In this document: one piece after another, positions 2,873 to 10,928 of the stretch | Numbering within the stretch: position 1 is the first letter of the stretch | How the letters are laid out: each line of letters opens with the position of its first letter | Assembly (NCBI GenBank): GCA_049472355.1 | Contig: JBLIRP010000108.1 | Span: forward strand, 1 to 10,928 | Length of the DNA stretch: 10,928 nt | Origin: a bacterium | Lineage (GTDB): Bacteria > SZUA-182 > DTGQ01 > JAFGSM01 | Reading direction: 5' to 3' | The notes under the pieces: generated by a model | The model's input: the letters and a program-made list of their open reading frames with translations, nothing else | Databases searched by the model: none | What the model was told of the DNA's origin: nothing | Program-made: the position numbers and the translations under genes

Positions 2873-4342
2873 ATGTCACCCAGAAGACGCTGGATACCGA
2901 TACTCATTATCCTTTGTCTTGGTTGTTTCATTGGCGGCCTCATCGTTGCTGCGCGGATCAATGTGACCCCGCAGAGCATGGCCGTCGATGTTGCACCGGA
3001 AGAGGGCACTGTTGAGGATCTCTCGAATAATCAAATCATCTCCCCCTATACCTTCGTGGAAATCGCCAAACGGCTCAACCCCGCCGTGGTGTATATCAGC
3101 TCCACGCAGGTGGTCAAGGGATTCCAGAACTTTCATGCCCCGTTCAGGGACCCGTTCAGGGATTTCTTCGGTGACGACTTTTTCGACAAGTTCTTCGGGA
3201 TGCCCAAGGGAGAACTCAAGCAAAAAAGCCTCGGTTCAGGCTTCGTCATCGATAAGGAAGGGTATATCCTCACCAATAATCACGTGGTGCGTGACGCCGA
3301 GGATATCCTGGTCACCCTGGACAACGGCAATGAATACCAGGCCAAGGTTATCGGCAAGGATGACGACATGGACGTGGCCCTGCTCAAGATCGAGGCCAAG
3401 GGGACACTGCCCGTGGTTGAACTCGGGGACTCGGACGTCTTGCAGATCGGGGAATGGGTGGTTGCCATCGGCAATCCCTTCGGGCTCGAGCATACCGTTA
3501 CCGCAGGGATCGTCAGCGCCAAGTGGCGCACCATCGGCCAAGGGCCTTACAATTCATTCATACAGACCGATGCCTCCATCAATCCCGGCAACAGCGGCGG
3601 CCCCCTGTTCAATATCAAGGGAGAGGTGGTGGGAATCAACACCGCGATTGTCGCCGAAGGGCAGGGAATCGGTTTTGCCATCCCCATCAACATGGTGAAG
3701 GATGTCCTGGAGGACCTTAAAACCGAGGGGAAGATCAAGCGGGGATGGCTCGGGCTGATGATCCAGAGGGTCACCCCCGGCCTTGCCGAATCCTTCGGCC
3801 TCAAGGAAAATAAGGGCGCGCTGGTTGCGGAGGTGGTGGAGAAAGGGCCTGCTGACAAGGCGGGGGTAAAGCGGGGGGATGTCATCATCACCTTCAAGGG
3901 AAAGGAAATACGCGAGTACACGGACCTTTCCCGGTATGCAGGGCTGACCAGGCCGGGCACGAAGGTGACCATGGAGCTTTTTCGCGACGGCGAGAAGATG
4001 GAGATAACGGTCAAGCTGGGCGAATTCGGCGAAAATGGCGGGGTGTCGATGGCGGAGCGTGAAGAAAAGGCCATGGGCATGACCGTTCAGGATATCACCG
4101 AGGAATTGGCCAAGGCATTCGATCTCGGAAGGACCGAGGGGGTCCTGGTCACCGATGTAACCCCGGATTCACCTGCGGAAAAGGCGGGGATCCAGCGGGG
4201 GGATGTCATCATCGAGGTGAACCGGAAAAAGATCGCCGGCGCCAGGGACTTTCGCAAGAGCCTGAAATCGGCTTCGAAGGGCACGGTGTTGTTCCTGATA
4301 CGCCGCGGTGAAAATCTCCTCTATGTGGCAATCAGCAACTGA
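2873..4342 (+). CDS. degP: Periplasmic serine endoprotease DegP/HtrA (Do/DegQ family): trypsin domain plus two PDZ domains
   Basis: N-terminal signal/TM segment, SLGSGFVI, catalytic triad TNNHVV (His), DMDVALLKI (Asp) and QTDASINPGNSGGPL (Ser), PDZ1 (RGWLGLMIQ...GPADKAGVKRGDVI) and PDZ2 (MGMTVQD...SPAEKAGIQRGDVI). Confidence 0.96.
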   Translation: MSPRRRWIPILIILCLGCFIGGLIVAARINVTPQSMAVDVAPEEGTVEDLSNNQIISPYTFVEIAKRLNPAVVYISSTQVVKGFQNFHAPFRDPFRDFFGDDFFDKFFGMPKGELKQKSLGSGFVIDKEGYILTNNHVVRDAEDILVTLDNGNEYQAKVIGKDDDMDVALLKIEAKGTLPVVELGDSDVLQIGEWVVAIGNPFGLEHTVTAGIVSAKWRTIGQGPYNSFIQTDASINPGNSGGPLFNIKGEVVGINTAIVAEGQGIGFAIPINMVKDVLEDLKTEGKIKRGWLGLMIQRVTPGLAESFGLKENKGALVAEVVEKGPADKAGVKRGDVIITFKGKEIREYTDLSRYAGLTRPGTKVTMELFRDGEKMEITVKLGEFGENGGVSMAEREEKAMGMTVQDITEELAKAFDLGRTEGVLVTDVTPDSPAEKAGIQRGDVIIEVNRKKIAGARDFRKSLKSASKGTVLFLIRRGENLLYVAISN

Positions 4343-4570: not shown

Positions 4571-5533
4571 ATGATAGAGGTCCAGGAACTACGCAAAAGC
4601 TTCGGCCCGAATGTGGCGGTGAACGGCGTATCCTTCGAGGTGCAAAAGGGGGAGATATTGGGCTTTCTGGGTCCGAACGGGGCAGGAAAGACAACCACCA
4701 TGCGCATCCTCACCTGCTACATCCCGGCGGATTCGGGAACCGCCAAGCTCGCAGGATACGATACCTTCAAGGATTCCATCGAGGTGAGAAAAAGGGTGGG
4801 GTACCTCCCGGAGAGCGCACCCCTCTACCTCGACATGGGGGTGGTCGACTACCTCACCTTCATCGCCACCATTCGTAACATCCCCAAAAACAAGATAAAC
4901 GGCAAGATCAAGGACATGATCCGGGTATGCGGTCTCCAGCGTGAGTCGCACAAGTACATCGGCCAACTCTCCAAGGGATACCGCCAGCGGGTGGGGCTTG
5001 CGCAGACCCTCATCCACGATCCCGATATCCTGATTCTGGATGAGCCGACGACCGGTCTCGATCCGATCCAGATCATCGAGATCAGGGAACTCATCAAGGA
5101 AATCGGAAAGGAAAAGACGGTCATACTCTGCTCCCACATCCTCTCCGAGGTCCAGGCCACCTGCGGGAGGATCATCATCATCAACAAGGGAAGGCTGGTA
5201 GGAAGCGGTACCCCGGAGGAGCTGGCGGACCAGGCCAAGGGAAAGGAAACCGTGTTCATGAGCATCCGCGGCCCACTGCCGGCAATCCTCGAAATCATCG
5301 GCGGCATGAAACATGTGGTCGAGGTCGAATCGCTCGAGCCGGAGGGGGCGGAACAGGCCGGCGACAAGGAGATCCATGCGATCGTGGTCAGGGCGAACAA
5401 GGGAAAGGACATCAAGGAGGACCTCTTCAGGTGTGTGGTGGAAAACGGGTGGTCCCTGTCGGAGCTACGCGCGGAATCCGTAACCCTTGAGGATGCATTC
5501 AAACAATTGACCTGTCAGGAAGAGAGCGTATGA
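4571..5533 (+). CDS. ABC transporter ATP-binding protein, GldA-like (ABC-2 exporter type)
   Basis: Walker A GPNGAGKTT, signature LSKGYRQRVGLAQ, Walker B ILILDEPT, H-loop CSHIL, and a C-terminal extension ending TLEDAFKQLT. Confidence 0.93.
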   Translation: MIEVQELRKSFGPNVAVNGVSFEVQKGEILGFLGPNGAGKTTTMRILTCYIPADSGTAKLAGYDTFKDSIEVRKRVGYLPESAPLYLDMGVVDYLTFIATIRNIPKNKINGKIKDMIRVCGLQRESHKYIGQLSKGYRQRVGLAQTLIHDPDILILDEPTTGLDPIQIIEIRELIKEIGKEKTVILCSHILSEVQATCGRIIIINKGRLVGSGTPEELADQAKGKETVFMSIRGPLPAILEIIGGMKHVVEVESLEPEGAEQAGDKEIHAIVVRANKGKDIKEDLFRCVVENGWSLSELRAESVTLEDAFKQLTCQEESV

Positions 5534-6246
5534 GAAATATCATCGCCATTTTTAAAAGGGAGTTCCGGGCCTATTTCGATTCACCCATTGCCTACATCTT
5601 CATCACCGCCTTTTTGGTCATCAGCATGTGGATCTTCTTCAAGGGATTCTTTCTGATCGGGCAGGTGATGATGCGGGGATACTTCAGCCTCCTCCCCTGG
5701 CTCTTTCTCTTCTTTGTCCCCGCGGTGACCATGAGACTCTGGGCCGAGGAGAAAAAGCTCGGCACGATCGAGGTGCTCATGACGCTCCCGGTGAACGATC
5801 ATGAGGTGATCCTCGGCAAGTATCTCGCTGCATATCTCTTTCTCGGATTGACCATACTGTTGAGCATTTCCCTTCCCATTACCCTGGCGATCCTCGGGGA
5901 GCCGGACCTCGGCCCCATCATCGGCGGCTATGTGGGCGCCATGCTCATGGGGGGCGCCTATCTGGCCATCGGCCTTTTTGCCTCCAGCCTGAGCGAAAAC
6001 CAGATCGTGGCGTTCATTCTGGGAATCGCGTTCTGCTTCGCCCTCTTTATCATCGGTGAAAATTTCGTCCTCCTTGCGGTCCCCTCCCGGCTTGCCGCAC
6101 TGCTATCACAACTGGGACTGGGGAGTCATTTTGAAAGCATAGGCCGCGGGGTCATCGACACCCGGGACATCGTCTACTATCTGTCGGTAATCGGTTTCTT
6201 CCTATTTCTGAACATACGTTCGCTGGAAAGCAGGAAATGGAGCTAA
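5530..6246 (+). CDS. ABC-2 type permease, GldF-like
   Basis: KREFRAYFDSPIAY, TMRLWAEEKKLGTIEVLMTLP, ILGKY, GLFASSLSENQIVA and HFESIGRGVIDTRDIVYY motifs; six TM helices; ATGA overlap with the ATPase stop codon. Confidence 0.92.
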   Translation: MRNIIAIFKREFRAYFDSPIAYIFITAFLVISMWIFFKGFFLIGQVMMRGYFSLLPWLFLFFVPAVTMRLWAEEKKLGTIEVLMTLPVNDHEVILGKYLAAYLFLGLTILLSISLPITLAILGEPDLGPIIGGYVGAMLMGGAYLAIGLFASSLSENQIVAFILGIAFCFALFIIGENFVLLAVPSRLAALLSQLGLGSHFESIGRGVIDTRDIVYYLSVIGFFLFLNIRSLESRKWS

Positions 6247-6250
6247 GACC

Positions 6251-7834
6251 GTGAGCATGAAAAAGATCGGATACGGCACCCACGTGGTGCTCTATACCCT
6301 GGTGGTACTGGCCATTCTGGTGGCCGTCAACTATATCTTCCAGGCCGTCTCCTACCGGCTGGACCTCACTGAAAACCGGGTGTACAGCCTTTCAAAGGCG
6401 ACCAAAAATCTCCTCAAAGGACTCGATGACGTGGTGAGCATTCAGGCCTATTTCAGCAAGGACCTGCCTCCCCAGTTGGTGGAGCTGCGGCGGGACGTCA
6501 GGGACATACTGGATGAATATGGCGCCTATGCGGGGACCAACCTTTCCATCGAATTCATCGATCCCGAGGATGACCCGGAACTGAGCCAGAGGATGCAGTT
6601 CATCGGCATTCCCAAGGTACAGGTCAACATCTTTCAGAGGGACAAGGCGGAGGTGGCCAATCTCTACCTGGGCATGAGCATCATGTTCGAGGACCGCAAG
6701 GAGGTAATCCCCGTCATTCAGAACGTAACCAACCTCGAGTACGATCTCACCTCGGCCATTCTCAAGGTGACGAAAAAGGAGCCCGAGGTGGTCGGCTTCG
6801 TGTCGTGGAAACAGGACCCCGACCGGCGGCAGCAGGACCCCTACATGCAGATCCAGATGGCCCTCCAGAAACAATACGACGTGCGCAATATCAACCTGAG
6901 CCCCGGTCAATCGGTGCTGGAGGACATCGACACCCTGGTGCTGGTGGCGCCGGAGGAGGTTGACGAGAAGGAGCGCTACCTCCTGGATCAATTTCTCATG
7001 CAGGGAGGAAAAGAGGTATACCTGGTGGACATGGTCAGGCTGCAGACGGGAAGACAGCTTTCTGCGGAAAAGGTGACCACCAACATCAACGAGATGCTCG
7101 TGCATTACGGGGTCAAGGTGGAGCCGGACCTGGTGCTGGACCGGTCCAATTCCATGGCGGCGTTCAGCGGCGGCTTCTTCCATTTCCAGCTCCCCTATCC
7201 CTTCTGGCCCAAGATCGTCAAGGACGGCTTCGACCAGTCCCACCCGATGGTGAGCAAGCTGGAGTCCGTCAGCATGCCCTGGACCAGCTCGGTGAGGCCC
7301 CAGGAACAGGTCATCCAGGATAAAGGACTTCAATTGACCGTGCTCGCCCAGACCACCCCCCATGGATGGACACAGAAGGGACGATTCGACCTGAATCCAC
7401 AGCAGCGCTTCGACTTTCAATCCATCACCTTCGAGCGGGTCCCTTTGGCAGCCATGGTCTCCGGATTCTTTGAAAGCTTCTACAAGGAGCGCAAGGCGCC
7501 GATCGATGGTACGAACAAGTTGGATGTCTCCGCCCAGGAGACCCACCTGGTGGTGGTGGGGAATTCCCGCTTCATCCAGGACGACTTTCTGGGACGATTC
7601 CCTGAAAATGCCACCTTCTTTCTCAACATCGTTGACTGGCTGACCATGGGGGATGCGCTCATCGGCATTCGAACCAGGCAGAAGACAGAACGGCCGTTGC
7701 CCGAACTGTCCGAAAGCAAAAAGGCATTCATACGCTATAGCAACATCCTGGGTGTATCGATCCTGATCATTATATTCGGATTGGTGAAGCTCTTTCTCAA
7801 ACGAAAGACGAGGGTCGTTGCCAATGAACTATAA
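6251..7834 (+). CDS. GldG-like ABC transporter auxiliary protein (GIFT/ABC_transp_aux domain) with N- and C-terminal TM anchors
   Basis: N-terminal TM then RLDLTENRVYSLSKAT, IEFIDP, LEYDLTSAI, LDQFLMQGG, LVVVGNSRF, NATFFLNIVDWLT...LIGIR and a C-terminal TM. Start is GTG 6251 or ATG 6257. Confidence 0.9.
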   Translation: MSMKKIGYGTHVVLYTLVVLAILVAVNYIFQAVSYRLDLTENRVYSLSKATKNLLKGLDDVVSIQAYFSKDLPPQLVELRRDVRDILDEYGAYAGTNLSIEFIDPEDDPELSQRMQFIGIPKVQVNIFQRDKAEVANLYLGMSIMFEDRKEVIPVIQNVTNLEYDLTSAILKVTKKEPEVVGFVSWKQDPDRRQQDPYMQIQMALQKQYDVRNINLSPGQSVLEDIDTLVLVAPEEVDEKERYLLDQFLMQGGKEVYLVDMVRLQTGRQLSAEKVTTNINEMLVHYGVKVEPDLVLDRSNSMAAFSGGFFHFQLPYPFWPKIVKDGFDQSHPMVSKLESVSMPWTSSVRPQEQVIQDKGLQLTVLAQTTPHGWTQKGRFDLNPQQRFDFQSITFERVPLAAMVSGFFESFYKERKAPIDGTNKLDVSAQETHLVVVGNSRFIQDDFLGRFPENATFFLNIVDWLTMGDALIGIRTRQKTERPLPELSESKKAFIRYSNILGVSILIIIFGLVKLFLKRKTRVVANEL

Positions 7835-8813
7835 AAAAACCGTCATTCTCATCATATTCCTGTGTATACTGGTCGGCATCGCCTATTTCATGAACCGGCC
7901 CGCCAAAAAGGCGAAAGAGCCGGCACTCTTTCCCGGGTTTGATGCGGAAAAGGCCGTGGCCATTCGCATTAACGGTGAACGCGGCATGCTCACCCTCTCC
8001 AAGGTGGACGGCCGATGGATTGCGGTTGAGCAGGACAACCTTCCCGCGGACAACGATCAGGTAAAACAGGCCCTCCAGACCATTGCCGAGATCGACCGGG
8101 ACAACGTTGTATCCAGGAATCCCGATAAACAGGGAATATTCGAGGTTGATCCGAACAGCGGGTTCGAGGTCCTTGTGCAGGGTGAAGGTGACACCCCACT
8201 CGCCCACTTTTACATAGGAAAAAATGGACCTGATTTTATGAGCACCTATGTTCGTAAGGCCGGCAGCGACGAGGTCATCCTGTACAGTGGGTTTCATTTG
8301 AAATCCAGGTTTGACAAGCCTGCCGATACCTGGCTGGACAGATTCGTCCTCCTCGTTCAGGAGCCCGATGTGGACCGCATTGAATTCAGCACACCGGATG
8401 GCTCATACAGTATCGTCCAGGTGCGTGACGAGGGAAAATGGCGGATGGAGACGCCGGAAGAGGCCGAGGTGAAGGAGGATATGATCAAGGACATGACCCA
8501 GACCCTGTTTAATCTTCGGGCAACCAAGGTCCAGCGTCTGAAGCCCGATCAATCCCTGAAGGAATTCAACATTGATCCCCCCTCCGTGACCATTACCGTG
8601 GGCATGGCCGATGAGACCGCAACAACGCTCCTCATCAGCTCGAAAAATGAAAAGACGGAGGAATTCTTCGTCAAGCCCGTAGACCGGGATGTCATCTATA
8701 CCGTGGGCGCCTTCTCCGTAAACAAGCTCAACAAGAAATGGCAGCAGATCAAGGACGAAGCCCCGCCTCCCCCGCAGGAATCCGTACCAGCCCCTCCCGA
8801 AGAGAACACGTAA
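7824..8813 (+). CDS. DUF4340 domain-containing protein (single N-terminal TM; usual fourth gene of gldAFG-like operons)
   Basis: MNYKKTVILIIF TM anchor and two internally repeated modules (...LSKVDGRW...PADNDQV...YIGK...YVR; ...EGKWRMETP...LLISSK...FFVK), Pro-rich tail. The ATG at 7824 overlaps the gldG-like stop by 11 nt and is preferred over TTG 7818. Confidence 0.85.
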   Translation: MNYKKTVILIIFLCILVGIAYFMNRPAKKAKEPALFPGFDAEKAVAIRINGERGMLTLSKVDGRWIAVEQDNLPADNDQVKQALQTIAEIDRDNVVSRNPDKQGIFEVDPNSGFEVLVQGEGDTPLAHFYIGKNGPDFMSTYVRKAGSDEVILYSGFHLKSRFDKPADTWLDRFVLLVQEPDVDRIEFSTPDGSYSIVQVRDEGKWRMETPEEAEVKEDMIKDMTQTLFNLRATKVQRLKPDQSLKEFNIDPPSVTITVGMADETATTLLISSKNEKTEEFFVKPVDRDVIYTVGAFSVNKLNKKWQQIKDEAPPPPQESVPAPPEENT

Positions 8814-9099
8814 CGCCCCTGTTATGTTGGCCCCGGCGTTCGTGCGGCCTGCGGTTCAATCCGGGTATCGAACATGCAGCGGCATTATGGACTCGCCACA
8901 ATGAAACTCCCTGCATACCTCTGCAACTTGATTCACAGGTTGCATGCCCGTCCGGCGGCAACACAACTCCCGCCTCATTCCCTTCACCAGTAGGCACCGC
9001 AATCCCCCCCGGGGTGTACAGACCTGATCTGCGGTATATATCTTGCTTAAAATAAAGAAGATATCGGGGTATAGTGTATCAATCATACATACTCCACCA

Positions 9100-9128
9100 T
9101 TGTCTTTTTTGGCTCCATATGGTATATT
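9100..9128 (+). promoter_or_regulatory. Sigma-70-type promoter with extended -10 for the Gly/Tyr-repeat gene
   Basis: TTGTCT (9100-9105), 17-nt spacer, TGg-TATATT (9120-9128), followed by a very AT-rich stretch (9123-9160). Confidence 0.55.
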
Positions 9129-9159
9129 AACTATATAAATTCAATAAGATAATAATTTA

Positions 9160-9211
9160 ATGTTCAGGGCGACCTTCCGCGATCATGGAGGAGGATGATT
9201 GCCCTGAACAT
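9160..9211 (+). promoter_or_regulatory. Stable stem-loop in the 5' leader of the Gly/Tyr-repeat gene
   Basis: ATGTTCAGGGC (9160-9170) pairs perfectly with GCCCTGAACAT (9201-9211), extended by GA/TT and an inner CTTCC/GGAGG pairing. Confidence 0.55.
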
Positions 9212-9335
9212 GCACTGCGATTCTTCACGCATCGATTATGTGTGGAGCCGTTGGAGCGGAGAACGGATTCTGTGCGTAAATGACCAGGGCGGATAGAAGA
9301 CGACGCGCCTGCAGTTTGGTTAGGGAGTGAACGGA

Positions 9336-10436
9336 ATGAGAAGATTCGGAAAAATCAAGCTATGCTCCATCCTGAGTGTATTCCTTGTCCTTGCCATATG
9401 TCTTTGCGTGGTCCAGGGCATACTGAGGGCATCCGATACCCAGATCTCCATCAGAAAGGAAACCGGTTTTCCCCTTGCCCCGGACCCCAATGAGGTCTAC
9501 GACCACATCATGATGAAAATCAGGCCGTATGACAAAAACTTTCGTCTCGCACTGAGCATGTATATGGATAACGGGGAGTACCTCTGGATTTACTATACAC
9601 CGACAAATGTCCAGCCGTACCAGGATTACGAGGGAGGCCCGATCCACGCCGGGCTCAATGCCACATTTACTGCAAAGCAATGGAACCTGATCACCCTCGA
9701 TGTGGGGGTCACCCTCGAAGAGGGCCTCGTCCTCCCGGAATTGCGGTCAATCCAGGAGATCGAACTGGTGGGCAACCGCTACGATCTCGCCTATATCATC
9801 GCCTTCCGGGAACTGCCTGACGGCAGCAGAAGCAACATCATCATAGACGATTTCAGCCTCCCCGGGCAAAACCTCACCACCCGGGGATGGAAGTCAGGCA
9901 CCATAAATTATTTCAGCATCGCCTTCGATTCCGATATGCGCGGCCACCTCAAGGCGGAATATACGCCTCCGTCCACCGATGACGATTCGGACGATGACAC
10001 TGAAGAGGATGCGAATCAACCTTACTACTATTACGGATATCCCTATTACAGCGGCTACTACGGAACCGGCTACTACGGCGGCGGCTACTATGGGAGCGGT
10101 TCCTACGGGGGCGGCTATTACGGCGGTGGATACTACGGCGGTGGCTACGGAGGTTACTACGGCGGTGGCTATGGCGGCGGGCTCTACGGCGGTGGCTATT
10201 ACGGCGGCGGCTATTACGGCGGTGGGCTCTACGGCGGCGGGCTCTACGGCGGCGGCTACGGAGGTTACTACGGCGGTGGCTATTACGGCGGCGGATACTA
10301 CGGCGGGCTCGGCCTCTATGGTGGGCTCTACGGCATGGGCCTCTATGGCGGGCTTGCAAGTTACTACGGGGGCCCCATCGGCATGGGAGGCCCCTTAGGG
10401 CTCGGTATCGGAGGGCTTGGCTGGCCCTTTATCTGA
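9336..10436 (+). CDS. Secreted hypothetical protein: signal peptide, putative CBM-like beta-sandwich domain, acidic linker, Gly/Tyr-rich repeat tail
   Basis: ATG 9336 has AGGGAG 8 nt upstream (alternative start GTG 9327). MRRFGKIK plus a hydrophobic core and LRA|SDT suggests a Sec signal. Globular region about 9432-9962, DDDSDDDTEED linker at 9978-10010, then ~137 aa of Gly/Tyr repeats to the stop. Confidence 0.85.
   Translation: MRRFGKIKLCSILSVFLVLAICLCVVQGILRASDTQISIRKETGFPLAPDPNEVYDHIMMKIRPYDKNFRLALSMYMDNGEYLWIYYTPTNVQPYQDYEGGPIHAGLNATFTAKQWNLITLDVGVTLEEGLVLPELRSIQEIELVGNRYDLAYIIAFRELPDGSRSNIIIDDFSLPGQNLTTRGWKSGTINYFSIAFDSDMRGHLKAEYTPPSTDDDSDDDTEEDANQPYYYYGYPYYSGYYGTGYYGGGYYGSGSYGGGYYGGGYYGGGYGGYYGGGYGGGLYGGGYYGGGYYGGGLYGGGLYGGGYGGYYGGGYYGGGYYGGLGLYGGLYGMGLYGGLASYYGGPIGMGGPLGLGIGGLGWPFI
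10023..10370 (+). repeat. Coding tandem repeat, degenerate 15-bp unit (e.g. TAC TAC GGC GGC GGC) encoding GGG[Y/L]Y
   Basis: Repeated tactacggcggcggc / ctctacggcggcggg variants. An exact 30-nt duplication GGCTACGGAGGTTACTACGGCGGTGGCTAT occurs at 10143-10172 and 10254-10283. Confidence 0.92.
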
Positions 10437-10526
10437 TCCCCCCAAACACGCACACCCCAGTCCGGTAAAAAGAATGATTCTTGCATAGGTACAGGGTGAC
10501 ATATAGTACCGGAGGGGGGAAAATCG

Positions 10527-10928
10527 ATGCGTATTGTGCCACGCCATGGGCACCGTGTTCTCATCATTCTCATACTATCCGTCCTGTTCCTCCCCTTTTC
10601 GGCACGGTCACAATTTCAGCCGCCCTTTTTTTCGCCCGGATTCTATAATCCTTTATTCGCACCTCGGACGACGCCGGCATTACCGGCGATCACCCTCATC
10701 AGGGAGTTCCCTGCCGGGCAGATCAACCAGGACCATGTCTCTTTCCTTCTGAAGACATCTTCACCCCTGAGTGTTATTCTGGATATATCAAGCCAAGGGG
10801 GGCAGTTGCTCCGAATCGAGATGATCCCTGAGAATACGGAAAATCCGCCCATAGCCCAGGGAAACCGCATCCTTGTTCCGGTAGGGAGCGAGAAGATCGA
10901 CGGGGCATGGCATGAATGGCTGTTGAGC
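10527..10928 (+). CDS. Secreted hypothetical protein, 3'-truncated; probable paralogue of the globular domain of the upstream Gly/Tyr protein (not in the supplied ORF track)
   Basis: RBS GGAGGGGGGA (10511-10520), ATG 10527, frame open for 134 codons to the window edge: MRIVPRHGHRVLIILILSVLFLPFSARS|QFQPPFFSPGFYNPLFAPRTTPALPAITLIREFPAGQINQDHVSFLLKTSSPLSVILDISSQGGQLLRIEMIPENTENPPIAQGNRILVPVGSEKIDGAWHEWLLS. Clear Sec signal with an A-x-S cleavage site. Confidence 0.85.
   Translation, partial: MRIVPRHGHRVLIILILSVLFLPFSARSQFQPPFFSPGFYNPLFAPRTTPALPAITLIREFPAGQINQDHVSFLLKTSSPLSVILDISSQGGQLLRIEMIPENTENPPIAQGNRILVPVGSEKIDGAWHEWLLS

Follow-up and report, generated by a model that had tools for sequence, protein, structure and literature searches.

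A charge-free Gly/Tyr tail on a predicted exported protein, part of an apparently undescribed order-wide system of tract-bearing proteins with predicted assembly

The window analyzed here, that is, the whole stretch of 10,928 nucleotides, is an entire contig (C11) of a host genome of 3.49 Mb that comprises 148 contigs and is 87.5% complete. The open reading frame at 9336-10436 of its forward strand encodes a product of 366 residues, and its in-frame hexamer coding score was 160, whereas alternative reading frames that overlap it scored -8 to -110. The features in and around this gene are the following:

4571..8813, + strand: GldA/GldF/GldG-like ABC transporter and DUF4340 operon, all below the Gld cut-offs
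9047..9156, + strand: AT-rich 5' region with three sigma-70-like sites (consensus match only)
9322..9327, + strand: Shine-Dalgarno-like AGGGAG, 8 nt 5' of the ATG (read from the sequence)
9336..9431, + strand: predicted Sec/SPase I signal peptide, residues 1-32 (hydropathy heuristic; A-x-A-type sites of aligned orthologues)
9432..9962, + strand: folded head, residues 33-209 (AlphaFold2, Foldseek, VIA and profile matches)
9963..10022, + strand: Pro/Thr plus acidic spacer, residues 210-229 (sequence; orthologue comparison)
10023..10433, + strand: charge-free Gly/Tyr tail, residues 230-366, passing from Tyr-rich to Leu-rich (composition and motif counts)
10362..10382, + strand: YYGGPIG motif, residues 343-349, just ahead of a short hydrophobic C-terminus (alignment)
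10527..10928, + strand: start of a second exported jelly-roll gene, a paralogue, truncated where the contig ends (hhalign)

The start is likely the ATG at 9336 and not the GTG at 9327, because the AGGGAG element lies at the given distance ahead of the former. By consensus match only, the region 8750-10650 contains seven sigma-70-like sites, compared with 1.8 +/- 1.3 in shuffled sequences, and the gene likely has its own promoter inside the 522-nt gap that follows the DUF4340 gene. The product begins with MRRFGKIK and a hydrophobic stretch (Kyte-Doolittle maximum of 2.99 in a 15-residue window); cleavage is predicted after A32, between ILRA and SD, there is no lipobox, and the orthologues present A-x-A-type sites at the matching place. 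The signal peptide, folded domain and short, very acidic spacer that had been proposed in the first-pass annotation were all recovered: the first by the hydropathy heuristic and the aligned orthologue cleavage sites, the second as an all-beta AlphaFold2 model, and the third as a segment (residues 215-225) in which nine of 11 residues are D or E, an acidic spacer being kept in all eight same-family sequences examined. Scans of the whole protein against Pfam (E<=0.1) and NCBIfam assigned no family. Elsewhere in the window, a sigma-70 group 1/2-like factor, below the RpoD and RpoS cut-offs, is encoded at 1704-2639, and the next gene, at 2873-4342, is by eye a DegP/HtrA-type protease.

The head was modeled by AlphaFold2 as an all-beta jelly-roll sandwich (pLDDT 82.6, pTM 0.82). 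Its structural matches are the beta-sandwich of glucuronyl C5-epimerase (4pw2; VIA Z 10.0, rmsd 3.0, 114 aligned residues), CFA20 (Z 9.6, rmsd 2.6) and GH16-type jelly-rolls (Z 9.2-9.5), three kinds that are tied within 1 Z; Foldseek (E 2.4e-4) and Atlas searches gave matches as well, and identity to the best solved matches is 8-14%. In a direct Pfam scan the head fell below the cut-offs of PF21174 and PF05018. A profile search with the head gave 232 matches, mainly partial and inside large multidomain proteins, and reached tandem PF21174 domains of large proteins; five of the seven distant matches that were scanned carry PF21174, and the apparent link of the head to that family is an indirect one, through profile matches. 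Among the 150 matches listed of the 232, ten qualified as tract-bearing. Judging from the modeled fold, the head likely binds a glycan or a partner protein.

Of the 31 genomes searched, 11 contain relatives of the head, namely six of six of its family and five of six of a sister family. The expectation that homologues would keep the tail held: a long charge-free Gly/Tyr tract is present in all 10 complete orthologues, and the eleventh ends at a contig edge after 44 charge-free Gly/Tyr residues. The DUF4340 gene, the last of the Gld-like operon, lies directly upstream in 10 of the 11 orthologue loci, and a paralogous jelly-roll gene lies downstream in eight of them. The partial copy in the window aligned with a relative's copy at an hhalign probability of 92.9 (E 3.6e-7), and the relatives' copies have Pro/Phe/Ser-rich, charge-poor ends.

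The longest charge-free run of the protein spans residues 226-366, and its 141 amino acids include G68, Y41, L11, P5, S4, Q1 and N1, with zero D, E, K, R or H. Counted from Y230, it is the 137-residue tail named in the first-pass annotation, whose quoted motifs and gradient also proved correct in our motif and composition counts: GGGYY occurs seven times, GGYY nine, GGLY four, YY 16 and GGY 12, and from the first to the last third of the tail Tyr falls from 0.40 to 0.15 while L/M/I/F rise from 0 to 0.30. The tail has only four [G/S]Y[G/S] (FUS-type) motifs and no Cys. It is not a product of chance, since pooled-residue shuffles gave a comparable tract in just 1 and 3 of 2633 proteins. Two factors also rule out an assembly artefact of the repeat, which had been named as a point to check. 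First, the encoding: the nine GGYY copies are written in six different DNA encodings. Second, the independence of the assemblies: relatives that were assembled separately have the same tail, with differing repeat numbers.

It is important to note how strictly charge is avoided. Among 926 tail residues of eight same-family sequences (five genomes and three database proteins), a single one is charged, and 34% of the single-base missense changes from the tail codons in the window would yield a charge; across relatives, the GC3 of the tail tracks that of the head, from 0.72 down to 0.33. These comparisons indicate that selection at the protein level keeps the tail uncharged despite drift in codon usage. 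The YYGGPIG motif is kept in all eight complete same-family sequences aligned, and the sister family has a separate conserved motif of its own at the start of the tract, which in its orthologues contains more Leu and Ser. A homo-trimer prediction for the tail scored 0.01, a value that bears neither way on assembly, and a search with the tail among proteins of <201 residues returned nothing at E<=1e-10, a result made uninformative by the low complexity of the query. In the RNA-run search the best share was 0.05, made up of short contig pieces over the repetitive tail only and none over the head; one piece of 219 nt that spans the boundary of spacer and tail shows five differences there and has fewer repeats. 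The RNA runs gave no sign of expression or habitat.

A first scan of the host genome found 49 Gly/Tyr-rich reading frames. In a census that rests on custom gene calls and a hydropathy heuristic, with some genes miscalled, charge-free aromatic tracts were identified in 126 of 654 signal-peptide-like genes versus nine of 1979 other genes, several of these nine being cut or miscalled; the forecast that other signal-peptide proteins with YGG tails would be found in the genome was thus borne out. The tracts range in length from 40 to >240 residues, and no single motif common to all was seen. In 37 of the 126 genes the tract is at least 45% Gly+Tyr, and 23 of these 37 proteins consist of tract over at least 60% of their length, which leaves little or no cargo to be tagged; one paralogue, at C82:24308-24619, is a pure YGGL protein of 103 residues. 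The tract is terminal (N- or C-end) in 96 of the 126, and the last six residues are uncharged in 79 of the 126 tract genes versus 467 of all 2633 genes. Under a permissive pattern, the predicted mature N-termini of the tract proteins are mostly Gln (71) or Tyr (35). Among 34 long tracts, which are paralogues and not independent, L/M/I/F increase toward the C-end in 26, and Tyr decreases in only 19 (p 0.055); the Tyr gradient of the tail studied here is not general among tracts.

Domains joined to tracts were scanned in 51 genes at loci rich in tracts, some of them neighbors of tract genes, and in 20 further tract genes. Tracts were found joined to proteases (S8 and M4) and protease inhibitors (I42 and Kazal), to alpha-2-macroglobulins and a transglutaminase-like protein, to a polysaccharide deacetylase, to Cthe_2159, LVIVD-propeller and beta-helix proteins, and to a 60-haem cytochrome. 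The sequence GLYGGYG occurs 16 times in five reading frames of the host and is absent from the gene at 9336-10436, and most tract genes lie far from the Gld-like ABC operon. A cluster of 16 members with an N-terminal tract (contigs C58:665-2739, C56:35951, C62, C63, C71, C79, C92:2 and C139) shares a conserved C-terminal domain of roughly 110-150 residues, mostly starting AEQAGTW, with no Pfam match in the five members scanned. A charge-free module of ~35 residues, NLYYPV...QxPFLQIAPLLGV, is common to several tract proteins (C38:4753, C91:8579, C106:13074 and C122:2) and to relatives, and is possibly a specific assembly segment. In three YGGL-tract proteins of relatives (L072, L090 and L122), a conserved QIAPLLG module is followed by one terminal CxxCH.

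The distribution of these genes follows the order. A triple-YGG DNA pattern gave 4-67 matches in each of 12 of the 13 order genomes and none in seven other genomes of the phylum, and the thirteenth (G010) has a signal-peptide gene of YGG type, which brings YGG-type secreted genes to 13 of 13. In one genome (G007) the backward control pattern gave more matches than the real one (eight versus four), and the real ones translate as signal-peptide YGG genes. The head profile matched 13 of 13 genomes of the order and none of the seven others; 11 of these genomes supplied sequences to the profile itself, and the matches in G006 and G010 are weak, so the gene at 9336-10436 is not established as universal in the order. 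The genomes of the order are kin and not independent, and absence here means not found in the genomes searched. A looser YGxx pattern, run on five genomes, was discarded, since in two genomes outside the order its matches translated as tyrosine-cluster tails, which we take to belong to BY-kinase-like proteins, and not as secreted tracts. A metagenome scan with the pattern (YGGL)3 found 49 stretches, of which 27 have a signal-peptide-like start, most of them resembling by eye the families of the order, and 22 are cut, open or unrelated. Isolated Gly/Tyr tracts after signal-peptide-like starts (L070, L114 and L077) come from apparently unrelated lineages; this set includes a contig of 67% GC and two lipoprotein-like genes.

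We also identified a small exported Pro/Trp-rich family with the same distribution, having 10-67 matches in each of the 13 genomes of the order and none in the seven others. Its members have ~190 residues, are rich in Pro, Leu and Trp, start with QxWxAxPPYNxLWPLW, contain <1% K+R and are encoded in tandem arrays. The host has 35 matches, on contigs C82:3676-10787 (L024), C116:57289-59818, C27, C52 and others. The fold was predicted with a pLDDT of 91.6; its best structural match had a VIA Z of 3.0 and Foldseek returned no match at E<=0.001, which does not prove a new fold, and the Atlas matches of the family are to be read as leads only.

Regarding the envelope, all 20 genomes of the phylum encode BamA and 19 of them mraY, gene content that identifies the host as a diderm with peptidoglycan synthesis; because the lineage retains both, a tract layer does not replace the normal envelope. 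The host has five secretin matches and type II secretion-like clusters on contigs C88 and C97, whose non-secretin genes were recognized by eye; a GspK search over the phylum was discarded because it was noisy and its controls matched in monoderms. Omp85-family matches number 4-7 in genomes of the order versus 1-3 in other orders, and by eye the extra members in the host resemble TamA/TamB pairs and a two-partner secretion pair. Acetyl-CoA synthase is present, no haem-copper oxidase was found in any of the 20 genomes of the phylum, and the uncultured host is likely anaerobic.

On the basis of these sequence comparisons and of analogy, we give about an even chance to the reading in which the tail would co-assemble non-covalently with the tracts of the ~126 predicted exported proteins into a coat or matrix outside the cytoplasm, displaying the head. 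The protein would be exported by the Sec route and cleaved after A32, and it would then either cross the outer membrane through the encoded type II secretion system or be deposited in the periplasm. The uncharged tails would condense through Tyr-Tyr stacking and Leu/Met contacts, with the mostly-tract proteins as the bulk of the material and the Pro/Trp-rich family, by analogy with the M2 blocks of suckerins, as a possible folded building block. The acidic spacer would keep the head clear of the condensed phase, the head would be free to bind its glycan or partner protein, as its fold suggests, and tract-bearing proteases and protease inhibitors may remodel and protect the layer. Selection against charge, the association with export, the cargo-less members, the variety of partners and the spread over the order favor this matrix reading. 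Against it, tract sequences differ between proteins and between the families of the order, and therefore a loose compositional role fits as well as a material does.

A different role, which we consider unlikely though well worth weighing, is that each tract serves its own protein as a retention or sorting tag, holding it at the surface by insertion into the outer-membrane/LPS interface or through recognition by an export apparatus, for instance the neighboring Gld-like ABC transporter, with no material being formed. The terminal position of most tracts, the excess of uncharged last residues, the conserved YYGGPIG end and the DUF4340 gene upstream of nearly all orthologues fit a tag. However, the 23 mostly-tract proteins have little to retain, the tracts show no visible common motif and are of variable length, and the transporter operon is distant from most of the genes in question.

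The chances are poor, in our estimate, that these are periplasmic inclusion-envelope proteins of the SgpA/B/C kind, coating sulfur or other hydrophobic droplets. The accessible text of two reports describes Sgp as signal-peptide, hydrophobic, repetitive, keratin-like and redundant envelope proteins encoded by 1-6 genes per genome (PMC10386293, PMC6374484), and the small AYYG-type paralogues of our host match that description. On the other hand, that gene number is far from the one counted here, neither this protein nor any of 52 paralogues and neighbors scanned matched PF17228, and proteases or lectin-like heads would be hard to explain on a globule. Nor did searches for sulfur genes find them: in none of the 20 genomes did dsrA exceed its cut-off (best 84 versus 393 bits, with the control genomes below that threshold too), a flavocytochrome c sulfide dehydrogenase (FCSD) domain was likewise not found (control positive in 1), and a crude motif scan revealed no obvious SQR.

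Multihaem cytochromes raise another reading, to which we assign a similarly low probability, in which the matrix is an electron-transfer scaffold whose aromatic tracts pack cytochromes into a conductive layer round cells or aggregates. The host has 34 genes with at least three CxxCH motifs, 398 motifs in total and up to 60 in one protein; two of these cytochromes carry charge-free aromatic tracts, and some YGGL proteins of relatives (L072 and L122) end in the single CxxCH mentioned above. Such gene content, in a lineage with acetyl-CoA synthase and in which neither dsrA nor haem-copper oxidase was found, suggests extracellular electron transfer. Paired-CxxCH counts are 18-58 in the order versus 3-26 outside, which makes the order richer without confining the motif to it. 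Nevertheless, only those two of the 34 cytochromes carry a tract, in two genomes from outside the order, 22 and 26 paired motifs occur without any triple-YGG match, and the gene at 9336-10436 has no haem motif. Cytochrome loci of the host include C92:11987-21760, C67:29575-42546, C136:3232-11849 and C80, and the cytochromes include proteins of 60, 49, 28 and 26 motifs.

Animal Gly/Tyr structural proteins are often cured oxidatively, and the first-pass annotation had suggested dityrosine or DOPA chemistry for this tail. Its 41 Tyr and 16 YY pairs would provide the substrate, and the accessible text of one report states that dityrosine cross-links can be introduced into recombinant suckerin in vitro (PMC9999432). 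This suggestion is weakened by the failure to find a haem-copper oxidase in any of the 20 genomes and by a search of the 87.5%-complete host genome, with working controls, that covered multicopper oxidases (laccases), PF00141 (class I-III) peroxidases and DyP and found none of these; a tyrosinase search, whose control was silent, was uninformative. Going by this gene content the chemistry looks unlikely, and an oxidatively cured adhesive or coat is a very improbable account of the tail. Finally, near-neutral slippage in exported proteins is the least probable account and appears largely refuted: the repeat number varies (tail length among orthologues is 88-137 residues) and Tandem Repeats Finder picks up the array, but charge is excluded, the codons are degenerate, the end motif is conserved, tracts are restricted to exported proteins and whole genes are made of tract.

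Returning to the coat or matrix, a wider proposal that we put forward more tentatively is that the order spends ~5% of its genes on an extracellular material that is modular and condenses by itself, possibly an electrically conductive one, with cargo-less Gly/Tyr/Leu polymers and the Pro/Trp subunit as bulk, into which any tract-bearing protein (lectin-like heads, proteases, inhibitors and multihaem cytochromes among them) would be built by composition alone, in convergence with the glue blocks of suckerins. If true, composition would act as the address code of a bacterial biomaterial. What the sequence comparisons establish is that the Gly/Tyr tract is a real, selected feature of an apparently undescribed order-wide system whose assembly is predicted; our literature search, which did not extend to subscription papers and supplements, found no description of it, and an earlier one may exist. 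To our knowledge, the known bacterial protein matrices and coats (curli, Fap, chaplins, BslA and sulfur globule envelopes) rely on a small number of dedicated genes, whereas here about one gene in 20 appears to bear a charge-free aromatic tract on an exported protein, throughout the order. Confirmed assembly would mean a new design for a bacterial surface and a natural library of suckerin-M2-like sequences from a likely anaerobe, apparently without oxidative curing, that are open to direct testing as recombinant peptides. The analysis also gives a first structural prediction for this lineage.

In comparison with known systems, the head resembles CFA20 and Glce_b_sandwich (PF05018 and PF21174) in its predicted beta-sandwich fold and differs from them in its low identity and in the lack of a direct Pfam match. 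Curli and Fap amyloids, chaplins and BslA are exported and self-assemble into a surface matrix or hydrophobic coat, and these systems use few genes and different chemistry. Pfam scans found no curlin repeats in the proteins scanned, and CsgG-like matches were only pieces of 54-59 residues inside 700-residue proteins; unlike in curli producers, neither a curlin match in those proteins nor a full CsgG channel was found in this host. FUS-type prion-like domains have dense [G/S]Y[G/S] in a Ser/Gln/Asn-rich tract, and the analogy drawn with them in the first-pass annotation is thin given four such motifs and S4, Q1 and N1 in 141 residues. High-Gly/Tyr keratin-associated proteins, insect chorion proteins and shematrins are secreted or matrix structural proteins of GGY/GYG type, a composition that this tail shares; neither this protein nor its scanned paralogues have a Pfam match to them and the tail has no Cys, and the likeness is presumably compositional and convergent.

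SgpA and SgpB are Gly/Tyr-rich. The Sgp proteins A to D of Allochromatium vinosum and other globule-forming Proteobacteria (PF17228) are, as far as the accessible text of the sources goes, likewise bacterial, exported and repetitive, with redundant paralogues, and the protein studied here shares with them a predicted cleavable Sec signal peptide (heuristic and orthologue alignment). They differ from our case in PF17228, in their 1-6 genes against ~126 tract genes, and in that no rDsr was found in this host, the tract is fused to many folded domains and Pro is scarce (5 of 141 residues); a genome-wide PF17228 search was uninformative because its control was silent, and our literature search found no Sgp described with a folded head or at a copy number of ~126. 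Sgp is the closest characterized bacterial kind, and membership in it fails on PF17228. The earlier statement that no characterized bacterial system has this architecture was overstated, since Sgp are signal-peptide, keratin-like structural proteins according to the accessible text of PMC10386293.

Squid suckerins self-assemble into a nanoconfined beta-sheet material. They are defined, in the accessible text of PMC9999432, by Gly/Tyr/Leu-rich M2 modules and Ala/Thr/His-rich M1 beta-sheet modules in the arrangement [Pro-M1-Pro-M2]n; there, simulations show the M2 blocks (GGY, GGL) associating with one another as a glue, and the peptide GLYGGYGV forms a gel with no cross-links. The suckerin likeness seen in the first-pass annotation stands for the M2-type modules, with GGY 12 times and GGLY four times in this tail, and fails for the M1 blocks, which are absent: only two of 138 residues are A, H, T or V, with no His, and there is no [Pro-M1-Pro-M2]n. 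This protein also has a folded head and an acidic spacer and no sign of homology to suckerins, and for lack of M1 blocks and His it does not count as one. By analogy, the tail would work like the M2 half of suckerins.
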